Assembly (NCBI GenBank): GCA_043823745.1
Contig: JBDRAN010000005.1
Location: 4,459 to 68,458 of the forward strand
Direction of reading: 5' to 3'
DNA from: Candidatus Omnitrophota bacterium
GTDB lineage: Bacteria; Omnitrophota; Gorgyraeia; Duberdicusellales; 4484-171
Length of the DNA stretch: 64,000 bases
This document shows positions 38,720-51,107 of the stretch, in pieces; position 1 is the stretch's first letter, and each line of letters begins with the position of its first letter. The notes beneath the pieces are model-generated. The model worked only from the letters and a program-made list of their open reading frames with translations, did no database searches and was not told the origin of the DNA. Made by a program: the position numbers and the translations under genes.

Positions 38720-40018
38720 TTACTTATGCGCAGCGGGTGCCACCAAGCCGCGCCGCCGGGCGAGGACGCAAAGCGCTCGTATCTCTTCTTCCTTCGTCGC
38801 GAGCCCCTGATCGAGAACTACATCAAGAAGTTTTTCAAGAAGCCCGCCGTAGGCAGTATGCGGTTTAATACCGATGCGTTTTAAATCTTCACCGCGGACT
38901 TTAAGACGCACATGAGCGAGCGAATTCAAAAAATAACGAATGTTCGCGCGCAGGCGCGCGTTCGTATGGAAAGAATAGAGAAATACGATTGCTTCAAAAC
39001 TCAAAGGATTAAGCAGCCGGTAGATACGGTGCGTCGTAACAGGACGCGCCAGTATTTTTACTTTCGTAATATATTTTTTTATCGAAAGTACGCGGACACG
39101 CTCCCCTCTCCTAAAATCGAACGTCGAAAAAAACATATCAACCGCTCTCACCGAAGGTCTCATCAGCACCGCACTCAAGTACAGGAGCCAGATATCGAGC
39201 GGACGATGTTGCGAAAAATTCTTCTGGTATACACCAAGCGCCTGCCTGATGCGTCCGAAAAGCTTACGGCTTTCTTGAGTAAGACGGACGTTGGCAATAA
39301 AGGACAGTCCGTACATCTTTTCGATAGAGACTAAACACTTCCACGGATCGGGTTCCTTCAAAAGAAGCACGATCTCATCCCGAAGCCGATGCGGATGTAC
39401 AAGGGCCAGCGCGTGTTCCTGACGAGCGCGCGCGGCAAGCACCCTGGTACGTGGCTCGATGCGAAAACCGAAACGGTTCATAAAACGCACCGCGCGTATA
39501 ATGCGTGTGGGGTCATCACGGAAACTATTTGCGTGTAAAACTCTTATCAAACCTTTTTTAAGATCGTGTTGTCCGCCATAAAAATCGATACGTAATCCAT
39601 AATCTTCCCTATTAAGACTGATTGCCATCGCGTTAATCGTAAAATCTCGACGCAAGAGATCATCACGCAATGCTGCCGGCGTAACGCGAGGCAAGACTGC
39701 CTGTGATGCGTATGTTTCCTTACGCGCCGTGGCAAAATCAATTTTATGCGCACCGTAATAAACTGTTGCGGTACCAAAGGCATGGTGTCGTCTTAATTCT
39801 TTGTGCGCGACACGCGCAAATTCGCTCGCAAGCTTGATCGCGTCACCTTCAACAACCAGATCAAGATCGATAATTTCCTTCGCAAGGAGCAAATCCCGGA
39901 CTACACCGCCCACCAGGTATATCTTAAACCCAAGACGCTCAGATATAATACTTAAGGACTCGAGTATTTTTTTGAAATCATGATGTATGGTTGCAAGCTT
40001 AGAAATCATAATTCTCAT
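38720..40018 (-). CDS. tRNA nucleotidyltransferase/poly(A) polymerase family protein (CCA-adding enzyme-like)
   Basis: Pol-beta-type motif GGVVRDLLL...DLDLVV and RRDFTINA. Confidence 0.85.
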   Translation of the reverse strand: MRIMISKLATIHHDFKKILESLSIISERLGFKIYLVGGVVRDLLLAKEIIDLDLVVEGDAIKLASEFARVAHKELRRHHAFGTATVYYGAHKIDFATARKETYASQAVLPRVTPAALRDDLLRRDFTINAMAISLNREDYGLRIDFYGGQHDLKKGLIRVLHANSFRDDPTRIIRAVRFMNRFGFRIEPRTRVLAARARQEHALALVHPHRLRDEIVLLLKEPDPWKCLVSIEKMYGLSFIANVRLTQESRKLFGRIRQALGVYQKNFSQHRPLDIWLLYLSAVLMRPSVRAVDMFFSTFDFRRGERVRVLSIKKYITKVKILARPVTTHRIYRLLNPLSFEAIVFLYSFHTNARLRANIRYFLNSLAHVRLKVRGEDLKRIGIKPHTAYGGLLEKLLDVVLDQGLATKEEEIRALCVLARRRGLVAPAAHK

Positions 40019-40902
40019 TTTGCGCGAGGATGAAACTGCGCGTGAATCGCCTTAATCCTGCTCTTATTAACATGCGTATATATCTGGGTCGTTGTAATGC
40101 TGGCGTGCCCTAACATCTCCTGCACGCTGCGCAGGTCAGCTCCGTGCTCAAGAAGATGGGTCGCAAAAGAATGCCGAAACGTATGCGGGCTCACCCGCTT
40201 CTTAATGCCTACCTCTTTAACGGCACGTTTGATCATCTTCCAGATACTCTGACGGGATAAATGTCTCCCGCCCTGCGCCAAAAAAAGATACAACGAGGTT
40301 TTTTTGGCAAGGAGCGCGGGCCGCGCCTCGGTACAATACTTCTGGAGAAACTCCCGCGCAATACGGCCAAGCGGCACGATCCGCTCTTTTGAGCCTTTCC
40401 CCTTACATTTAATAAAACCAACTTCTAAATTAATATCGGCCACCTTAAGGTTTGACGCTTCTGAAACGCGCAAGCCACTGGCATACATCACTTCCAGTAT
40501 CGCCCTATCTCGTTTACCGTGCATATCGCGCAGATCAGGCACTTTCAAGATCCGCATTACATCATCGAAATCAAGACAATCGGGAATTTTCTTCTCGGTC
40601 TTTGGAGATTCAATGAGCTCGGTAGGATCGCTCGTCGAAACCTTTTCCCGCAACAAAAATTTATGAAAACTCTTAAGGGTCGACAGGACACGGGCGATGC
40701 TTATCGCCGACAAATTCTTGCGCAATGAAAAAAGAAAGTCAGTGATGTCTTTGCGGGTAATGGTAAGAGGGCTGGTTATCCCCCTTTGCTTCAAATGCTT
40801 TACGTAACAATCGAGATCATGCCCATAGGCATACAGAGAATTACCGGCAAGGCCTTTTTCAACCCGAAGGTAATCAAAGAATGCTTCGCGGTAGGCGTCC
40901 AT
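40015..40902 (-). CDS. xerD: site-specific tyrosine recombinase XerD-like
   Basis: 295 aa, C-terminal HTFRHSFATHLLEHGADLRSVQEMLGHASITTTQIYTHV with catalytic Tyr, and an N-terminal core-binding domain. It has no IntI-specific extra domain by length. Confidence 0.85.
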   Translation of the reverse strand: MDAYREAFFDYLRVEKGLAGNSLYAYGHDLDCYVKHLKQRGITSPLTITRKDITDFLFSLRKNLSAISIARVLSTLKSFHKFLLREKVSTSDPTELIESPKTEKKIPDCLDFDDVMRILKVPDLRDMHGKRDRAILEVMYASGLRVSEASNLKVADINLEVGFIKCKGKGSKERIVPLGRIAREFLQKYCTEARPALLAKKTSLYLFLAQGGRHLSRQSIWKMIKRAVKEVGIKKRVSPHTFRHSFATHLLEHGADLRSVQEMLGHASITTTQIYTHVNKSRIKAIHAQFHPRAK

Positions 40903-42131: not shown

Positions 42132-42908
42132 TTAACCTTTATATCCGCGATAATTAACCTTCACCAGGTACAATCCTCCTGCGGGCGCGGGCTCATTCCG
42201 ATATGGAACCGTACGCGCAAGGATCGCCTCGGCTTGCTCCAGACTTAAGATACCGGAGCCGACCTTCACTAAAAATCCAACAATATTACGCACCATAAAA
42301 CGCAGGAAACCATTCGCTTCGATATCAACATACAGAAAGCTGCCCCTCTTGATAACGCGCACCCCTTTCACCTCTCTTGCGCAATCATGATAGGTATGCG
42401 CCTCCTTCGCAAAGAGCGAAAAATCATGTTTGCCGATAAGACGTTTTGCCACATCCGCCATCGCGCGGCGGTTAAGTGGTTTTACTGTATGCCAGGCACG
42501 ATCAACCCAAAACACCGAAGGCTCTTTACCGTTTAAAATAATATACCGGTATATTTTCGAATGCGCGGCAAACCGCGCGTGGAAATCAAGCGGCATAAAA
42601 CGGGCACTTTTGACCCTGATATCCGCCGGCAGGAAAGTATTAAGCGCCCTCTTAATGTTAGACAAAGGGATTTTTGTATCAACAATAAAATTTGCCGCCT
42701 GAGCCTGAGCATGCACCCCTCTATCGGTGCGCGAGGCAGAGGTAAGCGCAACGCGCTTTTTAAAAAGCTTTTTGAGCGCCTGCTCCAGCTTCTGTTGAAC
42801 GGCAATCTCGCGCTTTCCCGACTTATTCTGGATTTGAAAGCCAAAATAGCGCGTTCCAACGTATTCAATAGTAAGAAGAATGTTTTTTTGCATAGTAATC
42901 GCTCTCAA
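42132..42908 (-). CDS. truA: tRNA pseudouridine(38-40) synthase
   Basis: LTIEYVGTRYFGFQ N-terminus and a catalytic RTDRGVHA motif. Confidence 0.9.
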   Translation of the reverse strand: MRAITMQKNILLTIEYVGTRYFGFQIQNKSGKREIAVQQKLEQALKKLFKKRVALTSASRTDRGVHAQAQAANFIVDTKIPLSNIKRALNTFLPADIRVKSARFMPLDFHARFAAHSKIYRYIILNGKEPSVFWVDRAWHTVKPLNRRAMADVAKRLIGKHDFSLFAKEAHTYHDCAREVKGVRVIKRGSFLYVDIEANGFLRFMVRNIVGFLVKVGSGILSLEQAEAILARTVPYRNEPAPAGGLYLVKVNYRGYKG

Positions 42909-43098
42909 TTGCCAGATTCTCTATATTCCATGTATTCCGTATTTTGTGATATTATAGGGTAAATATGGTGCGATTCAAGAATTTTCATTGTTTCCAAGCA
43001 GAAACTTCAGTATAATTAACATGAATAGTTTTAGGCTTAAAGCAAACACGGATTCCGTATATTAATTGTTAGGTTAATAAGCAGAAATAAAAAATGCT

Positions 43099-43428
43099 AT
43101 GAAAAAATCAGGTTTCAATCGGAGACAGAAAATTACCATAGGCATAATTATAGCTCTTCTATTGCTCGTTATTATTTTTCCACCTCAAGTAATTGTGAAC
43201 GCCGGAAAAAAATGGTCGGGACCGTCATGGAGACCAATTTTCTACGTGGGACAAGTTTTTCACGATTTAGATAGACTTGATGGGCAAGAGGCACGGGGAT
43301 TTAAAGTCTCTGAAGATAGGGAATTTCGCGTTGAATTAGCCTGGTCGGTACTTTTTCTTGAATTATTTAGCATCCTTTTGATTGGTGGAATATTGACTCG
43401 TAGTTTTAAATCAAAGAATAAAACCTAA
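43099..43428 (+). CDS. cassette ORF: small 2-TM membrane protein, unknown function
   Basis: 109 aa. The TAA stop (43426-43428) lies inside the ACCTAAC box of the downstream attC-like site. Confidence 0.6.
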   Translation: MKKSGFNRRQKITIGIIIALLLLVIIFPPQVIVNAGKKWSGPSWRPIFYVGQVFHDLDRLDGQEARGFKVSEDREFRVELAWSVLFLELFSILLIGGILTRSFKSKNKT

Positions 43429-43497
43429 CAACTTCATCCAGCCGACCCAACTCGCCCCTATCGGGGCTTCGTCGTGCGGCTGATGTCGGTGTTATGT
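43423..43497 (+). repeat. attC-like site 1 (75 bp)
   Basis: ACCTAAC...ATCCAGCCGACC...GCGGCTGAT...GTTATGT. The L'' and L' arms pair with one bulged C. Confidence 0.65.
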
Positions 43498-43525
43498 GAA
43501 AATAAAAATAAATAAGGAGGTGCGT

Positions 43526-43903
43526 ATGCGTATCTTGGGGAATATCGTATGGATGATACTCGGTGGAATATTAATATTTTTATACTATTGTCTTGGATGT
43601 ATTGTTCTCTGTATAACAATTATCGGAATACCATTTGGTATTCAATGTTTTAAAATGGCGACTCTAGCTCTGATGCCTTTCGGAAAAGAAGTAAAAAATG
43701 AAGAGAAAAGCACAGGCGCTATACCAACTATAATGAATGTTCTCTGGTTGCTCTTTTTTGGAGTTGAAATAGCAATTGTTCACTTATTTTTTGCCTTAAT
43801 ATTCGTCATTACAATAATTGGGATACCATTTGCTAAACAACATATGAAACTTGCAGCATTAGCGTTAACGCCCTTCGGGAAAGAAATAATAAAAATCACA
43901 TAA
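43526..43903 (+). CDS. cassette ORF: YccF-like (DUF307) inner membrane protein with internal duplication
   Basis: ATG 5 nt after AAGGAGG. Two repeats of ITIIGIPFG...K(M/L)A.LAL.PFGKE, characteristic of the YccF family. The track's GTG start at 43496 lies inside the attC and is rejected. Confidence 0.7.
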   Translation: MRILGNIVWMILGGILIFLYYCLGCIVLCITIIGIPFGIQCFKMATLALMPFGKEVKNEEKSTGAIPTIMNVLWLLFFGVEIAIVHLFFALIFVITIIGIPFAKQHMKLAALALTPFGKEIIKIT

Positions 43904-43974
43904 CAAAGCAATCCAGCCGACCTTACCTCCGCCCTATCGGGCTTCGGCAAGGCGGCTGATTTCGAGTGTTATAT
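43898..43974 (+). repeat. attC-like site 2 (77 bp)
   Basis: ACATAAC (contains the ORF stop)...ATCCAGCCGACC...GGCGGCTGAT...GTTATAT. Confidence 0.65.
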
Positions 43975-43997
43975 GAGAAAAATAAAAAGGAAAATCA

Positions 43998-44444
43998 ATG
44001 AAAAAGACCTTTATTTTATGTTTAACAATATTATTTTTTACAAATTTTTCTTACGCTGAAACAGAATATGAAAAAGGAGGTATCATTGTTGGTATTATTA
44101 GCAAAAAACAGCCAATCGCAATCGGTGAACAAATCTGTTCGGATACGGTAACGTGGGGAATAATTAAAAATGGGGAATTTATAGGAAACAATAGCGAAGA
44201 GAATGTTGAGATATATACATATGAGGGAATAGAAGATAATGAGGTAATAATGTCTACTAGAGGAAGATCATATGGTTATCTTAAATTACCATTAAATAAA
44301 GATAATCAAGCAATATGGCATGTTTCCTCTGAGGCGGACTTTATCATTTCTGTTATAGATAAAGAAAAAAACATAACAGTTAAATTGACAAATGGTTTGG
44401 ACAGCTGGAAAAGCATATTCTATGAAAAGGATTTAGGGAGCTAA
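43998..44444 (+). CDS. cassette ORF: secreted protein, unknown function
   Basis: 148 aa with signal peptide MKKTFILCLTILFFTNFSYA. Low GC. Confidence 0.6.
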   Translation: MKKTFILCLTILFFTNFSYAETEYEKGGIIVGIISKKQPIAIGEQICSDTVTWGIIKNGEFIGNNSEENVEIYTYEGIEDNEVIMSTRGRSYGYLKLPLNKDNQAIWHVSSEADFIISVIDKEKNITVKLTNGLDSWKSIFYEKDLGS

Positions 44445-44499
44445 TACAAAACAACCAATCCCAAAGTAAAAGAACAATTTAAAGAATGAATAAAAAACC

Positions 44500-44574
44500 A
44501 TATAACAAGTCAATCCACCTGACCCTCGAAGCGCGTTAAGCGCGCCTCTCGGGCAGGTGATTTTTATGTTAGAT
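44500..44574 (+). repeat. attC-like site 3 (75 bp)
   Basis: ATATAAC...ATCCACCTGACC...GCAGGTGAT...GTTAGAT. Stem bases covary with sites 1 and 2. The central hairpin is GCGCGTTAAGCGCGC. Confidence 0.65.
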
Positions 44575-44848
44575 GGAAAAAATAAAAATATAAATGAAAT
44601 CAATTAATACTATTTTAAAAATTGCCAGTGTTATTGTAATCGGTTTTCTATCTGAAATGCTTAGTAAATTTATTATTCTTTACTGCTCCTACCATTTATA
44701 GCTATAATTCAGTAGGCAGGCTAAGCGGGATGGGTTCGATATATCTGCTTCTGTTAGTTTTTCTTTACAGCAGTTTCACCTGTGCCATTTTTTTATTTAG
44801 GAAGGAAAAAATAAAACTTACTCTCCTATCCTAATTGTTGGCGGGTTT

Positions 44849-45247
44849 TTGTTGTCTGGTATGATATTTTTAGCTATGCCTGGCAAATCCTTAAAATTTC
44901 CTCATAATGCACCCATGGATGAACGTAATAATTGGGCTTTACACAACCTTAACCCATATTATTCGATAGCCGTTGAAAAAATAAAAAGCCGAGAGGCTAT
45001 ATTGAACGATGTGGGAGAAAATATAAAAATTGCTCCTAGCCCGTATTCCAATAATGGCATGTATGATGGCATAGTAGAATTTACCTTTGACATTGAAGGA
45101 AACAAAGGGCGGGGACAATGCGAAATAGCATATAGACACTATGGTTCAAAACCACACCATTGGTATAAAATAAAATGGAATTTTAATGGAGAAAGCAAAT
45201 TTTTAATAGGTCAAAATAATTATATTTTTAATCCTGTCGAACAGTAA
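44849..45247 (+). CDS. cassette ORF: hypothetical protein (start uncertain: TTG 44849 or ATG 44861)
   Basis: 132 aa. The frame is open from 44801 after a GGAAGGA SD-like sequence. No motif recognised. Confidence 0.5.
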   Translation: MLSGMIFLAMPGKSLKFPHNAPMDERNNWALHNLNPYYSIAVEKIKSREAILNDVGENIKIAPSPYSNNGMYDGIVEFTFDIEGNKGRGQCEIAYRHYGSKPHHWYKIKWNFNGESKFLIGQNNYIFNPVEQ

Positions 45248-45277
45248 TATTGAAAATTATTTGTATGCAACAAAAAC

Positions 45278-45352
45278 ATCTAACAACTCACTCCACCGGA
45301 TCCAATGAGCGGCTTTTCAAGCGTTCATCGTGCCGCTGATACGGTGTTAGAT
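45278..45352 (+). repeat. attC-like site 4 (75 bp)
   Basis: ATCTAAC...CTCCACCGGATCC...GCCGCTGAT...GTTAGAT. The terminal boxes are near-perfect reverse complements (ATCTAACA / TGTTAGAT). Confidence 0.6.
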
Positions 45353-45361
45353 TATAAGGAA

Positions 45362-45967
45362 ATGAAAGCATTGGATTTAAAAAAATTCCTGGAAGATGCC
45401 CCTTTCCCAAAAAGAGAGATATTCCTCCACGGACTACACTGGCAACCCTCAAGTGATAGCTTGCCAATGGAATTAAAGATAAACAATGCAGCGCAAACAA
45501 CCGTTGGGCTATTTTTTCTACCTTTATCTTTGGCTCTTTTTCTCTTGGGAATACCCCTTATATTTTGGGCTAACGAAATGGGTTTTATAGCTATTATAAT
45601 ATCTTTAGTGCTTATGGCCCTTGGCGCTATGGGCATAAAATACTCAATAGAACAAATTTTCAAAAGGGAAAAATTAATTATATCGCACAGTTATGTAGAG
45701 CTTATAAGTACAATGTTTCGATCAAACAAGAGCTGGAAAGAACCTCTTGAAAAATACAAAGGTGTTCTGGGATACAAACAGCGCTCCTGTACGGTGCAAG
45801 GAATCTATATGCCGGGGGTCTGGTGCATTATACTTTTACACCCCGAGCATGATAAGTCTGTATTACTGTACTTACACAATTCTGAAGAAAAAGACTCTAC
45901 ATTCGAGACTAAGCTTCAACGTTTCTCAAAATTATTAAAGAAAGGAATTATCCGGGAGGGTGCATGA
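45362..45967 (+). CDS. cassette ORF: 2-TM membrane protein with cytoplasmic N- and C-terminal regions, unknown function
   Basis: The ATG at 45362 follows ATAAGGAA. The track's longer version (45305) begins inside the attC and is rejected. It overlaps the next ORF by ATGA. Confidence 0.6.
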   Translation: MKALDLKKFLEDAPFPKREIFLHGLHWQPSSDSLPMELKINNAAQTTVGLFFLPLSLALFLLGIPLIFWANEMGFIAIIISLVLMALGAMGIKYSIEQIFKREKLIISHSYVELISTMFRSNKSWKEPLEKYKGVLGYKQRSCTVQGIYMPGVWCIILLHPEHDKSVLLYLHNSEEKDSTFETKLQRFSKLLKKGIIREGA

Positions 45968-46695
45968 AAAAATTATATTTCTTGCTTGGGGTCATTGTCG
46001 TGGGTATTTTTTTTAATGTTCCTACAACGTACGGCGAAGGCTTCCTTGATAAAACAATCGATTACCTTAAAAATAAAAGAATTGATGCTCTGGAACAACA
46101 AGCACGCAGTGTGGTACGAATAATTATCCGTGGCATAGAAGGCTATACCGATGATCATGGTGGTGCCTGCCCTCAAAGCGTAGAAGAGCTCACGAAAGGA
46201 AATCCACCCTACCTTACTCCCGGGATCCTTAGCCTCGCAACCGAAAAATATATATATTCGATCGAATCCGGACAAAATAGTTGTAAGGTTTTGAGGGTAC
46301 CAAAAGAATGCGGCAAGACAGGCAATTTGATTTTTTCAATGGAAATCATGAAAGGTGAGAATCCGTGTGGGGCGGGTATACAGCCCCTAAAAAGAAGTGA
46401 GATGATGGCTCAAATGGATCTAAGCATGTTCAGCTCTGTAATTGACGAGTACATTTCAAATAATAATGGTGCCTATCCGTTAGAAGAAAATAATCTTAAG
46501 CAGGCACTTGATGTTTCGAAGTTTCCGGGGTCGGATAGGATTTTTGATGATAATGGTAAAGGTGGGTACACGTATACAGTCGAGTATAGATCAAACGGAT
46601 ATAAAATAACCGCATTGCCTACGGAGTGTGGCAAAACCGGTACCAGGATATTTACAGAGGAAATCGTTGAATTAATACAGCAGTGTAAACAATAA
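45964..46695 (+). CDS. cassette ORF: secreted protein with two tandem pseudopilin-like (GspG-like) repeats
   Basis: Sec signal peptide, then two repeats each with helix + Y..D(D/N).G(G/A).P + ...ECGKTG(N/T).IF..EI. Translationally coupled to the upstream ORF. Confidence 0.6.
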   Translation: MKKLYFLLGVIVVGIFFNVPTTYGEGFLDKTIDYLKNKRIDALEQQARSVVRIIIRGIEGYTDDHGGACPQSVEELTKGNPPYLTPGILSLATEKYIYSIESGQNSCKVLRVPKECGKTGNLIFSMEIMKGENPCGAGIQPLKRSEMMAQMDLSMFSSVIDEYISNNNGAYPLEENNLKQALDVSKFPGSDRIFDDNGKGGYTYTVEYRSNGYKITALPTECGKTGTRIFTEEIVELIQQCKQ

Positions 46696-46999
46696 TTGGT
46701 TAAGACGACACCCTCTGACAACGATACCCAGCGGGCCTAAAACCGCCGGCTGATTGAGCATATCAAAGTATTGGGCCGTCGAATCCTTGTAATGACAAGA
46801 AAATGTTCCACATTTTCGATAATGTATGGATTCGACATAATTCAACCGGCTATTCTTTGTGCCCCTGCGGCTGCAAAGAATGAGGTTTCATTAACTGATT
46901 TTTTGCATTAAACTAAAAAAAATGAAAAAAAATAAAACTATCGTAACAGTAATCTTGCTGCCAATACTCAATACTATTTATTTGTAATAAAGGAGAAAT

Positions 47000-47884
47000 G
47001 TGTTCAGCCTCATTGCGCTTGTTAAGGAACGCCCTCGCTTATACATCTTTTTAAAGATCACCGGATTACTATATATTCATAGGTATCTCCGAGATTTCTA
47101 TCATCTTTTAAGATACGGCAGAAAAAAGGAAATTATTATCAATGGGATGTCATTTATGTTTCCCATTATGGATAACGCTACACGAAATTTCTTTTTTGAT
47201 CCTTGTTGGCTTGGGGAAATTTGGGAAAAGGATGTTGTCCACCATTTCATTAAAAACTTAGAGGGATGCTCGTGCTTTATCGATATTGGAGCTCATGTTG
47301 GCTTTTATTCTCTTATCGCCGCAAAGATAATTGCCCCGCGAGGCGGGGTAGTACATGCTGTAGAAATGGATCTTGATAATATTACCCGGCTAAAATCGGC
47401 TATTCGGCTTAACAACCTGAATAATATCACCGTTCACCATGCAGCTATCGGAGATCACCAAGGGGAAGTGGAGTATTCTTGTTGCGGTGCCGAATGTAAT
47501 ACATTAAACATAGGAAGTGATAAGAGGGTTTATACTAAACGATCCGTTCAAATGATAACCTTGGATAATCTTGTCGCTACAGAACGGCTCAATCCAGATA
47601 TAATAAAAATTGACGTAGAAGGTGCTGAATATTTAGTCTTACTCGGAATGAGAAAAGCACTCCGCTTAAACAACCTTAAAATCTATTGTGAGGCTCATCT
47701 ACATCAAGACAGAGGAAGTTTATCCTCTTTCGGGCATTCTCCGAAAGATGTAGTGCAGGTATTAAAAGAATATAGTTACACAATTGAGCAAATAGGCCTA
47801 AAACAAGGCAGTAAGATAAAACAAGGCATTATCCATGATCTTCAGGACACAAAAGAAAATGTAATGCTTTTTATACATAGGTAA
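47000..47884 (+). CDS. FkbM-family SAM-dependent methyltransferase
   Basis: IDIGAHVGFYS and IKIDVEGAE motifs. GTG at 47000 follows AAAGGAGAAAT. An internal ATG start is possible. Confidence 0.75.
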   Translation: MFSLIALVKERPRLYIFLKITGLLYIHRYLRDFYHLLRYGRKKEIIINGMSFMFPIMDNATRNFFFDPCWLGEIWEKDVVHHFIKNLEGCSCFIDIGAHVGFYSLIAAKIIAPRGGVVHAVEMDLDNITRLKSAIRLNNLNNITVHHAAIGDHQGEVEYSCCGAECNTLNIGSDKRVYTKRSVQMITLDNLVATERLNPDIIKIDVEGAEYLVLLGMRKALRLNNLKIYCEAHLHQDRGSLSSFGHSPKDVVQVLKEYSYTIEQIGLKQGSKIKQGIIHDLQDTKENVMLFIHR

Positions 47885-47922
47885 GTTGAGACGAAGCTTA
47901 TAGAGCAAAAGTTGGTTTTTAA

Positions 47923-49002
47923 CTATCGAGCGATGAGACACTCGGCAATCTGCACCGCGTTAAGTGCCGCGCCCTTTAGGAGATTATCCGCCACCACCCA
48001 CAGCCACATTCCGTTTTTAACAAACGGGTCTCTCCTGATACGCCCCACAAAAACCTCACCCTTACCCTCGACATCCTTAGGCATCGGATAAAGGTTCTTT
48101 GCCGGATCGTCAACGAGAATGATGCCGGGCGCGCGGGCCAGGAGGGCCTTAACTTTGGCGGGCTCCATGGGCTTTTTGGTTTCAATATAAATCGATTCAG
48201 AATGCCCGGTACGCACCGGAACACGCACCGTGGTAGCGGAAATCTTAATTTTGTTATCATGCATTATCTTATGTGTCTCGTTAACCAGCTTCCACTCCTC
48301 CGAGGTATAATCACAATCGCTAAACCCACCGATCTGAGGAAAAACATTATAGGCCAGCTGCTGGGGCATGGAGCGCTCGGCCACTGCTTGGATACTCTTG
48401 TATCCGCCGGCGGTAATCGAGGATGTTTCCTCGTTTAGCTGCTCAACCGCTGATTTTCCCGCGCCGCTTGAAGCCTGCAGGGTTGTCACAATAACGCGCT
48501 TAATACCCGCTTTTTTATATATAGGCCAGAGCGCGACTACCATCTGAATCGTTGAACAATTAGGGTTAGCGATAATTCCTTTATGCTTCTTTACCCCGTT
48601 AGAAATACCCGATGAACGGTGAAGGAACCAATTTCTAACGGGGTTAATATCCGAAGCATTTACTTCAGGAACGACCAACGGAACACCGGGCTGCATACGA
48701 AAATCAGCACCATTGTCAATAACAACCGCGCCCCGCTTGACCGCTTCATGCGCATAGGTTGCGGCTGCGCCCTTTTCCCCTTCGGTGCCGGCGAAAAGCG
48801 CTATATCGATACCATTAAAGCCTTGGGCTGATATAGCCTCGACCTTATATGATCGTCCGTCAACTTCTATCGCACGCGCCGAACGCGCGAAAACGCGCAA
48901 CGTCTCTACCGGAAAGTTAGATGCCCGCAGGCACCGCAACATCTCAATACCGACAACGCCCACACCCACCACACACACATTGTATTTAGTTTTTTTCTTC
49001 AT
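47923..49002 (-). CDS. asd: aspartate-semialdehyde dehydrogenase
   Basis: VCVVGVGVVG NAD motif, active-site Cys context (IANPNCSTI), and a C-terminal dimerisation domain. Confidence 0.95.
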   Translation of the reverse strand: MKKKTKYNVCVVGVGVVGIEMLRCLRASNFPVETLRVFARSARAIEVDGRSYKVEAISAQGFNGIDIALFAGTEGEKGAAATYAHEAVKRGAVVIDNGADFRMQPGVPLVVPEVNASDINPVRNWFLHRSSGISNGVKKHKGIIANPNCSTIQMVVALWPIYKKAGIKRVIVTTLQASSGAGKSAVEQLNEETSSITAGGYKSIQAVAERSMPQQLAYNVFPQIGGFSDCDYTSEEWKLVNETHKIMHDNKIKISATTVRVPVRTGHSESIYIETKKPMEPAKVKALLARAPGIILVDDPAKNLYPMPKDVEGKGEVFVGRIRRDPFVKNGMWLWVVADNLLKGAALNAVQIAECLIAR

Positions 49003-49051
49003 CGCGCTCCTTACCGTAATACCATTATCGCGGTTGTATGACGCCTTTACT

Positions 49052-49726
49052 TTACCGCACGCTCATCTTAAATTTCTCAGCATCAGCGAACATAGAGTTT
49101 GCAAAGAGAGTACGCATCTCCTCCTTATTAAAACGGGAAATAAAGAGCTTAAAAGTCTCGATCAACTCTTTAGCGCCAAACCCATACTCGATAAACTCGA
49201 GTTGCAACCCCGCAACGTGCCTGGTGTCCAACGTATTATTACGAACAAGGTCTTCTATGCGACCGCGAACATCCGCGGCGTTACCTTCTTTATCAAAAAT
49301 AAAAAAGCAGCGGGTATTTTCGCTATCGATACGATCAAGGATGTCAGGAATGGTGCGTAACTTCGCGTCAATAAACGGCCAAAACGTAATCGCACTGCCT
49401 TTATGAAAACCAAAAAGCTTTTTGGCTGGCTTCTCGTAGTGCAATGTACTTGAGGCCGGGATATACTGGCGCGCGCGCTCCAATTTCTCTTCCGGTATGC
49501 CGTCAAGGGTGGTTATCGGAAACGATGAAACCATAAAACACATATCACCCTCGCCCTTGGCATTCTTGATCAACTCAGCAAGATACCCTTCACGATAAAA
49601 GGTGCGCAGGTCGAAAGTAATATTAATGACCCCCATCACCGATTCTTCAAATGTGATATCAAAAATCAGATATTCCCACCACGGAACTCTACTCTTGATA
49701 ATATTAAGAGAATATTTCGTCGCCAT
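49052..49726 (-). CDS. hypothetical protein
   Basis: 224 aa ORF with no recognised motif. It is preceded by a ~315-nt structured leader. Confidence 0.5.
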   Translation of the reverse strand: MATKYSLNIIKSRVPWWEYLIFDITFEESVMGVINITFDLRTFYREGYLAELIKNAKGEGDMCFMVSSFPITTLDGIPEEKLERARQYIPASSTLHYEKPAKKLFGFHKGSAITFWPFIDAKLRTIPDILDRIDSENTRCFFIFDKEGNAADVRGRIEDLVRNNTLDTRHVAGLQLEFIEYGFGAKELIETFKLFISRFNKEEMRTLFANSMFADAEKFKMSVR

Positions 49727-50042
49727 AGTTTTTACGTAAGTGGGTACCCACGGATGCGCCGTGACATTTTTTGCATATACCCCGACTCAGCTAAAAATAC
49801 GCTAAAATTCTCTACGACCCTCTGGAATTTCCTATCCTCATGACGCACTAGTTGTGCTACCAAAGTAGGAAATTCCGAGGACTAAGCCCCGGAAATCCTC
49901 CGGATTTCTCGGGGTAATTTTAGCGACTTTGCCGGGGTTATTCGTTTTACGCATTCACCCACGGCCAAGACCGTGGCATCACGCAAAACGAATAAAAAAA
50001 AGAGGCAACGCATGACGCATGCCCCTTTTTATACGATACTGA

Positions 50043-51107
50043 TTATGCGCCGATAGCGCTTACCACCAAATCGCCTACCTCTTCGGTGGAATAACCCATT
50101 TTTCCGGCGGCAAGGTTCGTCAGTTTATTTGTAACGATGTCAATGACGGCTGCCTCAATCGCCTGCGCCGCATGCGCCTGACCGAGCGTATCAAGCATCA
50201 TCCCCGCGGCGCAAACCGCAGCCAAAGGATTAATTACATGTTTACCCGTATATTTAGGCGCGCTTCCGCCAATCGGCTCAAACATCGAAACACCACCCGG
50301 ATTAATATTACCTCCGGCCGCGATACCCATACCACCCTGGATCATGGCGCCCAAATCGGTAATAATATCACCAAACATATTGTCAGTCACGATAACATCG
50401 AACCATTCAGGGTTTTTAACGAACCACATGGTTGTTGCGTCAACATGAGCATAATCGGTGGTAATATCGGGGTATTCTTTGGCAACCTCGTTAAACGTCC
50501 GCTGCCAGAGATCCCAGGCGTACGTTAAAACATTGGTTTTTCCGCATAGCGTTAGTTTCTTTCTCTTGTTACGTTTCCTGCAATACTCAAACGCGTAACG
50601 AATACAGCGTTCGACGCCGTACCGTGTATTGTAGGAAAGTTGAATCGCCACTTCGTTCGGCGTACCCTTATCCTTAAACTCTCCCATCCCCTTATACAAG
50701 CCTTCGGAATTCTCACGCACCACCACGAAATCAATGTCCTGGGGCAATTTACCCTTCAGCGGACAAAACGCTTCATTATAAAGTTTGACGGGACGCAAAT
50801 TAATATATTGGTCGAGGGCGAACCTTAGTTTAAGCAATATCCCGGTCTCTAAAATTCCCGGCTTCACATCAGGGTGCCCGATCGCACCCAGATAAATTGC
50901 GTTATAGTTAAGCAACTCCCTAATATCAGCTTCATCAAGCGTTTTTCCGGTTTTTAGATAGCGCTCGCCGCCAAATTCAAACGACGTCGTTTCATACGAA
51001 AACTCGAACTTCCTTCCGGCAGCCGCTAAGACTTTCAGGCCTTGGGCGACGACTTCCGGGCCCGTCCCGTCACCGGGGATAACCGCGATTTTATATTTCT
51101 GTTCCAC
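50043..51107 (-). CDS. leuB: 3-isopropylmalate dehydrogenase
   Basis: KIAVIPGDGTGPEV start and the NMFGDIITD motif. Confidence 0.95.
   Translation of the reverse strand: MEQKYKIAVIPGDGTGPEVVAQGLKVLAAAGRKFEFSYETTSFEFGGERYLKTGKTLDEADIRELLNYNAIYLGAIGHPDVKPGILETGILLKLRFALDQYINLRPVKLYNEAFCPLKGKLPQDIDFVVVRENSEGLYKGMGEFKDKGTPNEVAIQLSYNTRYGVERCIRYAFEYCRKRNKRKKLTLCGKTNVLTYAWDLWQRTFNEVAKEYPDITTDYAHVDATTMWFVKNPEWFDVIVTDNMFGDIITDLGAMIQGGMGIAAGGNINPGGVSMFEPIGGSAPKYTGKHVINPLAAVCAAGMMLDTLGQAHAAQAIEAAVIDIVTNKLTNLAAGKMGYSTEEVGDLVVSAIGA

Follow-up and report, generated by a model that had tools for sequence, protein, structure and literature searches.

Four putative attC sites in an integrase-less cassette array between asd and truA of a Candidatus Omnitrophota genome

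The asd-truA locus and its attC-like elements

The DNA analyzed here, a stretch of 64,000 nt from a Candidatus Omnitrophota bacterium (contig JBDRAN010000005.1 of assembly GCA_043823745.1; hereafter the window), contains a low-GC block in which four elements resembling integron attC sites lie on the same strand, each following a short open reading frame (ORF). The four elements are very probably integron attC sites, each closing a promoterless cassette ORF of the same strand, and since no integron integrase is found in the 64-kb window, the array is best classed as a CALIN (a cluster of attC sites with no integron integrase). The features of the locus are listed below in order of position; bit scores of the sites were obtained with a covariance model (R2) built from sites of other genomes only, with no window sequence.

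40015-40902, - strand: xerD, the sole tyrosine recombinase gene in the window
42132-42893, - strand: truA (left flank), directly beside asd in relatives
42909-47922: low-GC block (5.0 kb; 36.7% GC vs. 47-48% in the flanks), coded opposite to its neighbours
43068-43074, + strand: putative 5' boundary of cassette 1, GTTAGGT, matching GTTRRRY, with G|TT crossover, 24 nt upstream of the start of ORF 1
43099-43428, + strand: cassette 1 ORF, 109 aa, hydrophobic N-terminal stretch, no family match
43423-43497, + strand: putative attC site 1, R'' ACCTAAC, R' GTTATGT, 74.7 bits
43526-43903, + strand: cassette 2 ORF, YccF-domain inner-membrane protein (PF03733, E 3.5e-39)
43898-43974, + strand: putative attC site 2, R'' ACATAAC, R' GTTATAT, 74.9 bits
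43998-44444, + strand: cassette 3 ORF, 148 aa, no family match, ORFan
44500-44574, + strand: putative attC site 3, R'' ATATAAC, R' GTTAGAT, 72.7 bits
44849-45247, + strand: cassette 4 main ORF, 132 aa from a TTG start
45278-45352, + strand: putative attC site 4, R'' ATCTAAC, R' GTTAGAT, degraded, 44.4 bits
45362-45967 and 45964-46695, + strand: two overlapping ORFs past site 4, no family match
47923-49002, - strand: asd (right flank)

Anatomy of the four sites

The array consists of four + strand ORFs, each followed by a site of 75-77 nt on the same strand, with start-to-start distances of 475, 602 and 778 nt between sites. The GC content of the sites is 48-57% and that of the surrounding cassettes 30-36%. 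The stop codons of ORF 1 (TAA, 43426-43428) and of the YccF ORF lie inside R'' (outer box YTAAC) of sites 1 and 2, respectively. All four sites have paired AAC and GTT triplets, the full heptamer RYYYAAC is found in R'' of sites 1 and 4 and GTTRRRY in R' of sites 3 and 4, and the remaining heptamers are each one R/Y position off the consensus. The site subtype can be written as TAACAA-N5-TCCAGCNGAC...GCNGCTGAT.

The original prediction, made from the sequence alone, described these elements as attC-like stems with compensatory base changes and a conserved single-base bulge, and the strings it quoted are all present where it placed them. The pairing of the outer boxes, TAACA with TGTTA, holds in all four sites. 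In sites 1 and 2 the inner arm ATC[C]AGCCG pairs with CGGCTGAT apart from one C, as had been described, both in the sequence and in the predicted fold. Site 3 has ATC[C]ACCTG paired with CAGGTGAT, so that relative to sites 1 and 2 two L-stem pairs are altered on both arms; these are the two compensatory double substitutions noted earlier. In site 4 (TCCACCGG paired with CCGCTGAT) a further flipped pair and a C.C mismatch had been read correctly, but the count of a single mismatch was too low, as the L stem contains three non-standard pairs. The termini of this site, ATCTAACA and TGTTAGAT, are perfect and not merely near-perfect reverse complements.

The L''/L' inverted repeat is fully paired in sites 1-3 except for bulges. 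On the 5' arm of the top strand, a C and an A are bulged in all four sites (G and T, respectively, on the bottom strand). The second of these, absent from the original prediction, is found directly inward of the run of six pairs beginning after the C. The central 30-31 nt are different in each of the four sites, each of which has its own GC-rich hairpin in this part.

Covariation in the wider family of sites

Four sequences are too few for statistical covariation, and significance was reached only with 128 additional copies from other genomes. A species-representative genome collection was searched with a pattern in which only the invariant letters were fixed and the two switching stem positions were left free, and this matched 66 loci in other genomes (designated by L numbers below) compared to about 2 expected by arithmetic from base counts. 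Among the 70 foreign pattern sites the two free stem positions are paired in 57 and 59 sites, respectively, a degree of pairing that none of 20000 permutations equalled, while mis-registered pairing controls were paired in only 24/74 and 33/74 cases. The first free pair is G:C in 37 sites, C:G in 18 and G:T in 2, and the second is T:A in 24, G:C in 22, C:G in 8, T:G in 3 and A:T in 2. Within the window, a loose version of the pattern allowing 3 mismatches (70 matches vs. 53 expected) was of no use except for the four exact sites.

A covariance model built from the pattern sites (R1) matched 128 sites in the 441 kb of the 66 loci and gave zero matches in 832 kb of related genomes. These 128 sites of other genomes form the training set of R2, which recovered exactly four sites from the 64-kb window, on the + strand only (E 3e-16 to 2e-8), and nothing else; the reverse strands of the window reached 12-18 bits. 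In the 128-site alignment, with one extra pair added, 94.9% of the cells are standard pairs vs. 81.8% in shuffles, and displacing the partner by 1-3 columns lowers pairing to 22-53%. Across the family pairing amounts to 93.9% in the L stem, 9 of whose 12 pairs are changed on both sides, and to 97% of cells in TAACA/TGTTA. Double changes occur in 10 of the 17 pairs, and the number of cells changed on both sides is 262 against 82 expected. The earlier claim that the stem covariation reflects selection on a fold is supported by these foreign sites, and it passed the test that had been set beforehand as its possible refutation, an examination of more copies: the stems are maintained and the compensatory changes are statistically supported.

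Since 58 of the 128 sites were not selected by the pattern, they can be considered separately. Pairing in these is 88-98% at 15 of the 16 pairs of the original model, the exception being the innermost R-box pair (columns 11:162; 74% paired), and new pair types appear at positions that the pattern had fixed (A:T/C:G at 17:154, C:G/A:T at 20:152 and G:C/A:T at 25:147). The bulge claimed as conserved is C (bottom G) in all four window sites but in only 36 (62%) of the 58 unselected sites, whereas the second bulge, A on the top strand, is kept in 55. Across the family the length of the variable terminal part varies between about 27 nt and 50 nt or more.

Spacer columns 13 and 158 also covary, being paired in 89 of 128 sites (0/20000 shuffles), with C:G in 26, A:T in 25, G:T in 24 and T:A in 10; the observation also takes in window sites 1, 3 and 4. 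Wobble counts proved unusable as a guide to the selected strand, 24 of the 89 standard pairs at 13:158, for example, being G:T on the top strand, which would be A.C on the bottom strand. Some foreign sites (for instance L024 7180-7259, L046 4528-4607 and L050 1727-1807) combine the L'' arm of a GCGG subtype with the L' arm of a CAGG subtype, with G.G or G.A mismatches, and these may be recombinants or chimeras of metagenome assembly across repeats. The commonest 3' spacer in the family has TTTTT right after the GC-rich stem, so that many members look terminator-like in the cassette transcript; in the window a terminator scan picks out only site 3 (44543-44570).

Folding and strand asymmetry

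In single-stranded DNA folding, sites 1-3 reach -17.9, -20.6 and -20.7 kcal/mol on the bottom strand (z -4.5 to -5.9), and none of 200 shuffles folded as well. The predicted fold of these sites consists of the TAACA/TGTTA stem, an internal loop of 4-5 nt per side, an inner stem and a terminal hairpin, the inner stem showing a bulged G and, more inward, a bulged T, both on the 3' arm. The minimum-energy fold of site 4 is non-canonical (z -2.0). Covariance-model scores follow the same division, with 70-75 bits for sites 1-3 and 44-47 bits for site 4; site 4 is probably decaying. The sites are also polar, with scores of 70-75 bits on the + strand vs. 12-22 bits on the - strand, and thus retain the asymmetry by which the recombinogenic strand is defined.

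Integron integrases at related loci and in the window

Full-length IntI homologues, 41-52% identical to IntI1, are encoded at 8 of the 66 foreign loci, and the one that was scored, at locus L015, reached 478.9 bits on the NCBIfam "integron integrase" model TIGR02249 (cut-off 265). A search for IntI in the 832-kb control of related genomes found none. The intI gene is divergent from the first attC in 6 of the 8 loci, in most of these at a distance of about 1-2 kb, which is the classical layout. In the other two loci intI and the attC sites share a strand: at L015 (977-2702) the site follows downstream of intI, which is an inverted-integrase layout, and at L053 (587-4636) the sites are found upstream of it.

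A tblastn search of the 64-kb window with IntI1 and five IntI proteins of related loci found only xerD and neither an intI gene nor an intI pseudogene, and the window thus lacks the intI of a complete integron. The xerD product scores 368.7 bits on TIGR02225 (cut-off 329.6) and 153 bits on TIGR02249 (below the cut-off of 265). XerD was rejected as the recombinase of the array, as it passes the XerD equivalog cut-off, fails that for integron integrases and has an unchanged position in relatives L068 and L071, which have no attC sites.

The 190-bp interval from truA to the first ORF was scanned without detecting a + strand promoter-like site, and only a weak R-box-like palindrome was seen there. 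This palindromic match (43011-43077) scored a non-significant 14 bits (E 1.3) and 11 bits, and only GTTAGGT was retained from it as the putative left boundary of cassette 1.

Comparison with known attC sites and cassette arrays

The attC interpretation of the original prediction is supported by site anatomy, covariation, the integrase link at other loci and strand asymmetry. Like the attC sites (59-base elements) of characterized systems, such as attCaadA7 and the Vibrio cholerae repeat (VCR), the four sites have inverted AAC/GTT cores in R''/R', an imperfect L''/L' repeat, a variable terminal structure, conservation of structure rather than of sequence, a length of 75-77 nt, and a location at the 3' ends of ORFs that lack promoters. 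The central spacer is largely unpaired with one covarying pair, as in the partly paired spacer of VCR, and on the bottom strand L'' carries first an extrahelical G and then an extrahelical T (PMC2727003). There are two extrahelical bases here, G and T with six pairs between them, whereas VCR has three (G16, T20 and T24). Mutagenesis has shown that the identity of the first extrahelical base is non-essential (PMC2727003), in agreement with the loose identity of the first bulge within the family. In contrast to the attC sites of clinical class 1-5 cassettes, the subtype is common mainly to metagenome-assembled genomes (MAGs) of Omnitrophota, Planctomycetia and Aegiribacteria.

The array resembles CALINs as defined with IntegronFinder (Cury et al. 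2016; PMC4889954) in having four attC sites (at least two) that share a strand and are separated by less than 4 kb, in the absence of an intI gene or pseudogene within 10 kb, in its small size and in its cassettes of unknown function. It differs in nothing essential, only the Omnitrophota host and the insertion point between asd and truA being particular. CALINs are common in MAGs (PMC9668308), and loss of the integrase or its separation through rearrangement may also account for the present one (PMC4889954). With sedentary chromosomal integrons the array shares its place on a chromosome and a content of ORFan cassettes or cassettes without known function, and differs from them in that no integrase or attI was found in the window, in having four sites, and in lacking extra similarity within the array. 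It also resembles the attC x attG insertions (SALIN, a lone attC site with no integron integrase, or small CALIN) described by Loot et al. (bioRxiv 10.1101/2022.09.11.507474), being a small integrase-less array in core genes with no transposable-element match in the scanned flanking ORFs and with a left boundary G|TTAGGT, although the insertion mechanism would here be deduced from these traces.

Insertion into a conserved gene order

The low-GC block has been inserted into conserved synteny and separates truA from asd. In nearly all of 80 metagenomic relatives (loci L068-L147) the two genes abut or share a few bases, and the gaps seen in a few of them reach about 1.6 kb at most. Both flanks are made up of core genes on the - strand, with the dcw (division and cell wall) cluster, ribF, truB, rbfA, the gene for CCA-adding enzyme, xerD and truA to the left and asd, leuBCD, fab genes, plsX and recG to the right, and the flanking gene order is conserved in relatives. 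No transposase or insertion sequence (IS) family match was obtained among the approximately 30 larger flanking ORFs scanned on both sides, a scan that included no search aimed at a transposase associated with repetitive extragenic palindromes (REP), known as RAYT. The low-GC block is horizontally acquired.

In the two closest relatives, L068 and L071, the gap between asd and truA is 0.6-0.7 kb and contains a small opposite-strand membrane ORF, with no attC detectable; these ORFs (L068 8273-8500 and L071 11185-11538, both on the - strand) are in a cassette-like position. As the 5-kb block splits asd from truA, truA must use its own promoter. A - strand promoter-like sequence, TTGAAT-16-TATAAT, is present near truA at 42978-42951.

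A contig of the sister MAG GCA_018827245.1 (JAHJZK010000109.1; L067) is 99.97% identical to window positions 47009-50810 and diverges in its last 27 bases (L067 3803-3829; window 46982-47009), inside the 5' end of a gene for an FkbM-type methyltransferase. The divergence hints at strain differences in the DNA left of 47009 or, alternatively, at an artefact of the contig end, 27 bases at such an end being a weak indication. The 47008/47009 breakpoint fits neither a G|TT crossover nor an attC site.

Proposed function and alternative explanations

In characterized integrons the integrase (IntI, which has an additional domain of its own) reads the shape of attC rather than its sequence, and cuts the bottom strand in the R box. 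By analogy, when the bottom (-) strand of the array becomes single-stranded, each site would fold into a hairpin composed of an R box (TAACA/TGTTA, with the AAC/GTT crossover), a mostly unpaired spacer, an L box with an extrahelical G followed by a T, and a variable stem-loop. Selection on the fold leads to compensatory changes in the stems and leaves the loop free to diverge, and the sites would be acted on by an integrase supplied in trans. GC skew and gene-strand bias make the - strand the probable lagging-strand template, and the bottom strands would then lie where conditions favour folding; this is the orientation reported for smaller arrays (PMC5371416). Sites 1-3 may still be usable by an integrase encoded elsewhere, and site 4 with its cassette appears to be in decay.

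Several observations weigh against this interpretation. No integrase that might recombine these particular sites is present in the window. Site 4 is degraded, and no significant attC follows it in 45353-47922. The R''/R' heptamers of sites 1-3 fit RYYYAAC/GTTRRRY only partially, with AAC/GTT intact. Finally, the covariation statistics come from related sequences in an alignment that was partly fitted to the structure.

The alternative that best survives is that the elements are true attC sites of a dead relic on which integrases have ceased to act, and in which the pairing was inherited from ancestral active sites and is not maintained here. The lack of an intI gene or pseudogene in 64 kb, the three stem mismatches and poor fold of site 4, a cassette 4 that is perhaps frameshifted and a possible fifth site decayed past detection would all be in accordance with such a state. 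On the other hand, sites 1-3 are essentially perfect at 70-75 bits and the stop codons of ORF 1 and ORF 2 are still embedded in R'', while the genome beyond the window is unseen and about half of CALINs are found in IntI-encoding replicons (PMC4889954). We regard a relic as possible, though on the unlikely side.

With respect to the origin of what we take to be an attC array, the cassettes may have arrived by means of an integrase acting in trans, either as a multi-cassette circle or by successive insertions at G|TT, or the rest of an integron may have been lost. The last good site ends in G|TTAGAT, with the next ORF starting directly after it, and the left boundary is the G|TTAGGT described above. 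These two boundaries would be the expected trace of a four-cassette circle inserted at a genomic G|TT by the attC x attG route, and the predicted empty site would be TATATTAATTG|TTAGATTATAAGGAAATG (43058-43068 joined to 45347-45364). The window sites are no more alike mutually (62-78% identity) than they are to their nearest foreign sites (76-83%), which argues for a shared cassette pool rather than a local origin. The MAGs contributing to this pool are labelled Omnitrophota, Planctomycetia, Aegiribacteria, Paceibacterota and, among Archaea, Nanoarchaeota, Woesearchaeota and Thermoplasmata. Near-identical attC subtypes were seen at L019, L021, L031, L038, L054 and L062, in MAGs labelled Paceibacterota, Nanoarchaeota, Thermoplasmata and Woesearchaeota in addition to Omnitrophota and Planctomycetia, which could reflect cross-domain cassette sharing or mis-binned contigs. 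Cross-domain sharing of cassettes has been reported (PMC9668308) and fits the MAG labels of the related attC sites. That the array is a fresh product of insertion in trans, in which a multi-cassette circle from a cross-phylum attC pool entered a G|TT in the asd-truA junction, is a tentative proposal that we consider rather doubtful. If true, attC x attG insertion would have a natural example here, in a phylum with practically no described integrons, and the locus would mark cross-phylum, possibly cross-domain, cassette exchange among sediment and groundwater microbes.

It is improbable that the array is a detached part of a complete integron whose integrase and attI came to lie outside the 64-kb window after a rearrangement. 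This is a known route to CALINs (PMC4889954), and of the block's surroundings only some 43 kb on the left side and 16 kb on the right were inspected, but both flanks consist of core housekeeping genes in an order conserved in relatives, and the scan of some 30 larger flanking ORFs gave no transposase or IS-family match. The weakest alternative, palindromes unrelated to integrons (REP or bacterial interspersed mosaic elements, miniature inverted-repeat transposable elements or intrinsic terminators) that covary through selection on an RNA or DNA hairpin, could draw on the location of the sites just after ORFs, the terminator-like appearance of site 3 and the T run after the GC-rich stem in the family consensus, but is most improbable: conserved AAC/GTT cores and one-sided bulges are foreign to terminators, no T run is present at sites 1, 2 and 4, an Rfam scan of the whole window gave no match (Rfam being without an attC family), no transposase-family match was found in the same ORF scan (not aimed at RAYT), and the occurrence of integron integrases at 8/66 loci vs. 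0 in 832 kb largely refutes it.

Read as a CALIN, the array is an ordinary example of a well-known element and leaves knowledge of the integron mechanism unchanged. It documents an integrase-less cassette array among core housekeeping genes of an Omnitrophota genome, and adds, for phyla that have received little study, an attC subtype that is backed statistically (two covariance models, 128 sites). A literature search for papers on integrons in Omnitrophota found none in the collection searched. The reading of the raw sequence had rightly picked out conservation at the level of structure.

Cassette contents and remnants

No homologues of the window cassette proteins were found in the 66 attC loci. 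Exact-sequence look-ups of the cassette and left-flank proteins gave no match, a match being obtained for asd only, in a 3.8-kb MAG contig. The cassette 3 protein has a single match among 5.8 billion clustered proteins, an identical protein of a Candidatus Omnitrophota MAG.

Cassette 4 (44595-45247) contains pieces of a hydrophobic ORF in two frames that can be joined by a one-base shift at T7/A6 runs around 44790-44812. The main ORF may thus be the 3' part of a frameshifted membrane-protein gene, or the split may be a homopolymer assembly error. The frame-split cassette adjoins the most degraded of the attC sites.

A fifth attC candidate at 46710-46771 (+), 15 nt past an ORF stop, was rejected with 6.5 bits, E 1.7 in 1.4 kb and a fold z of -0.6. 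It resembles the consensus in places (TCTGACAA..CCCAGCGG..CCGGCTGAT), and it is possible that it represents a decayed attC remnant.

The leaders after R' (43075-43098, 43498-43525, 43975-43997 and 44575-44594) have in common an A-rich GAAAAATAAAAA-like motif before the start codon, which corresponds to repeat families D3, D4 and D7 and may be a shared translation-initiation region or part of the cassette boundary.

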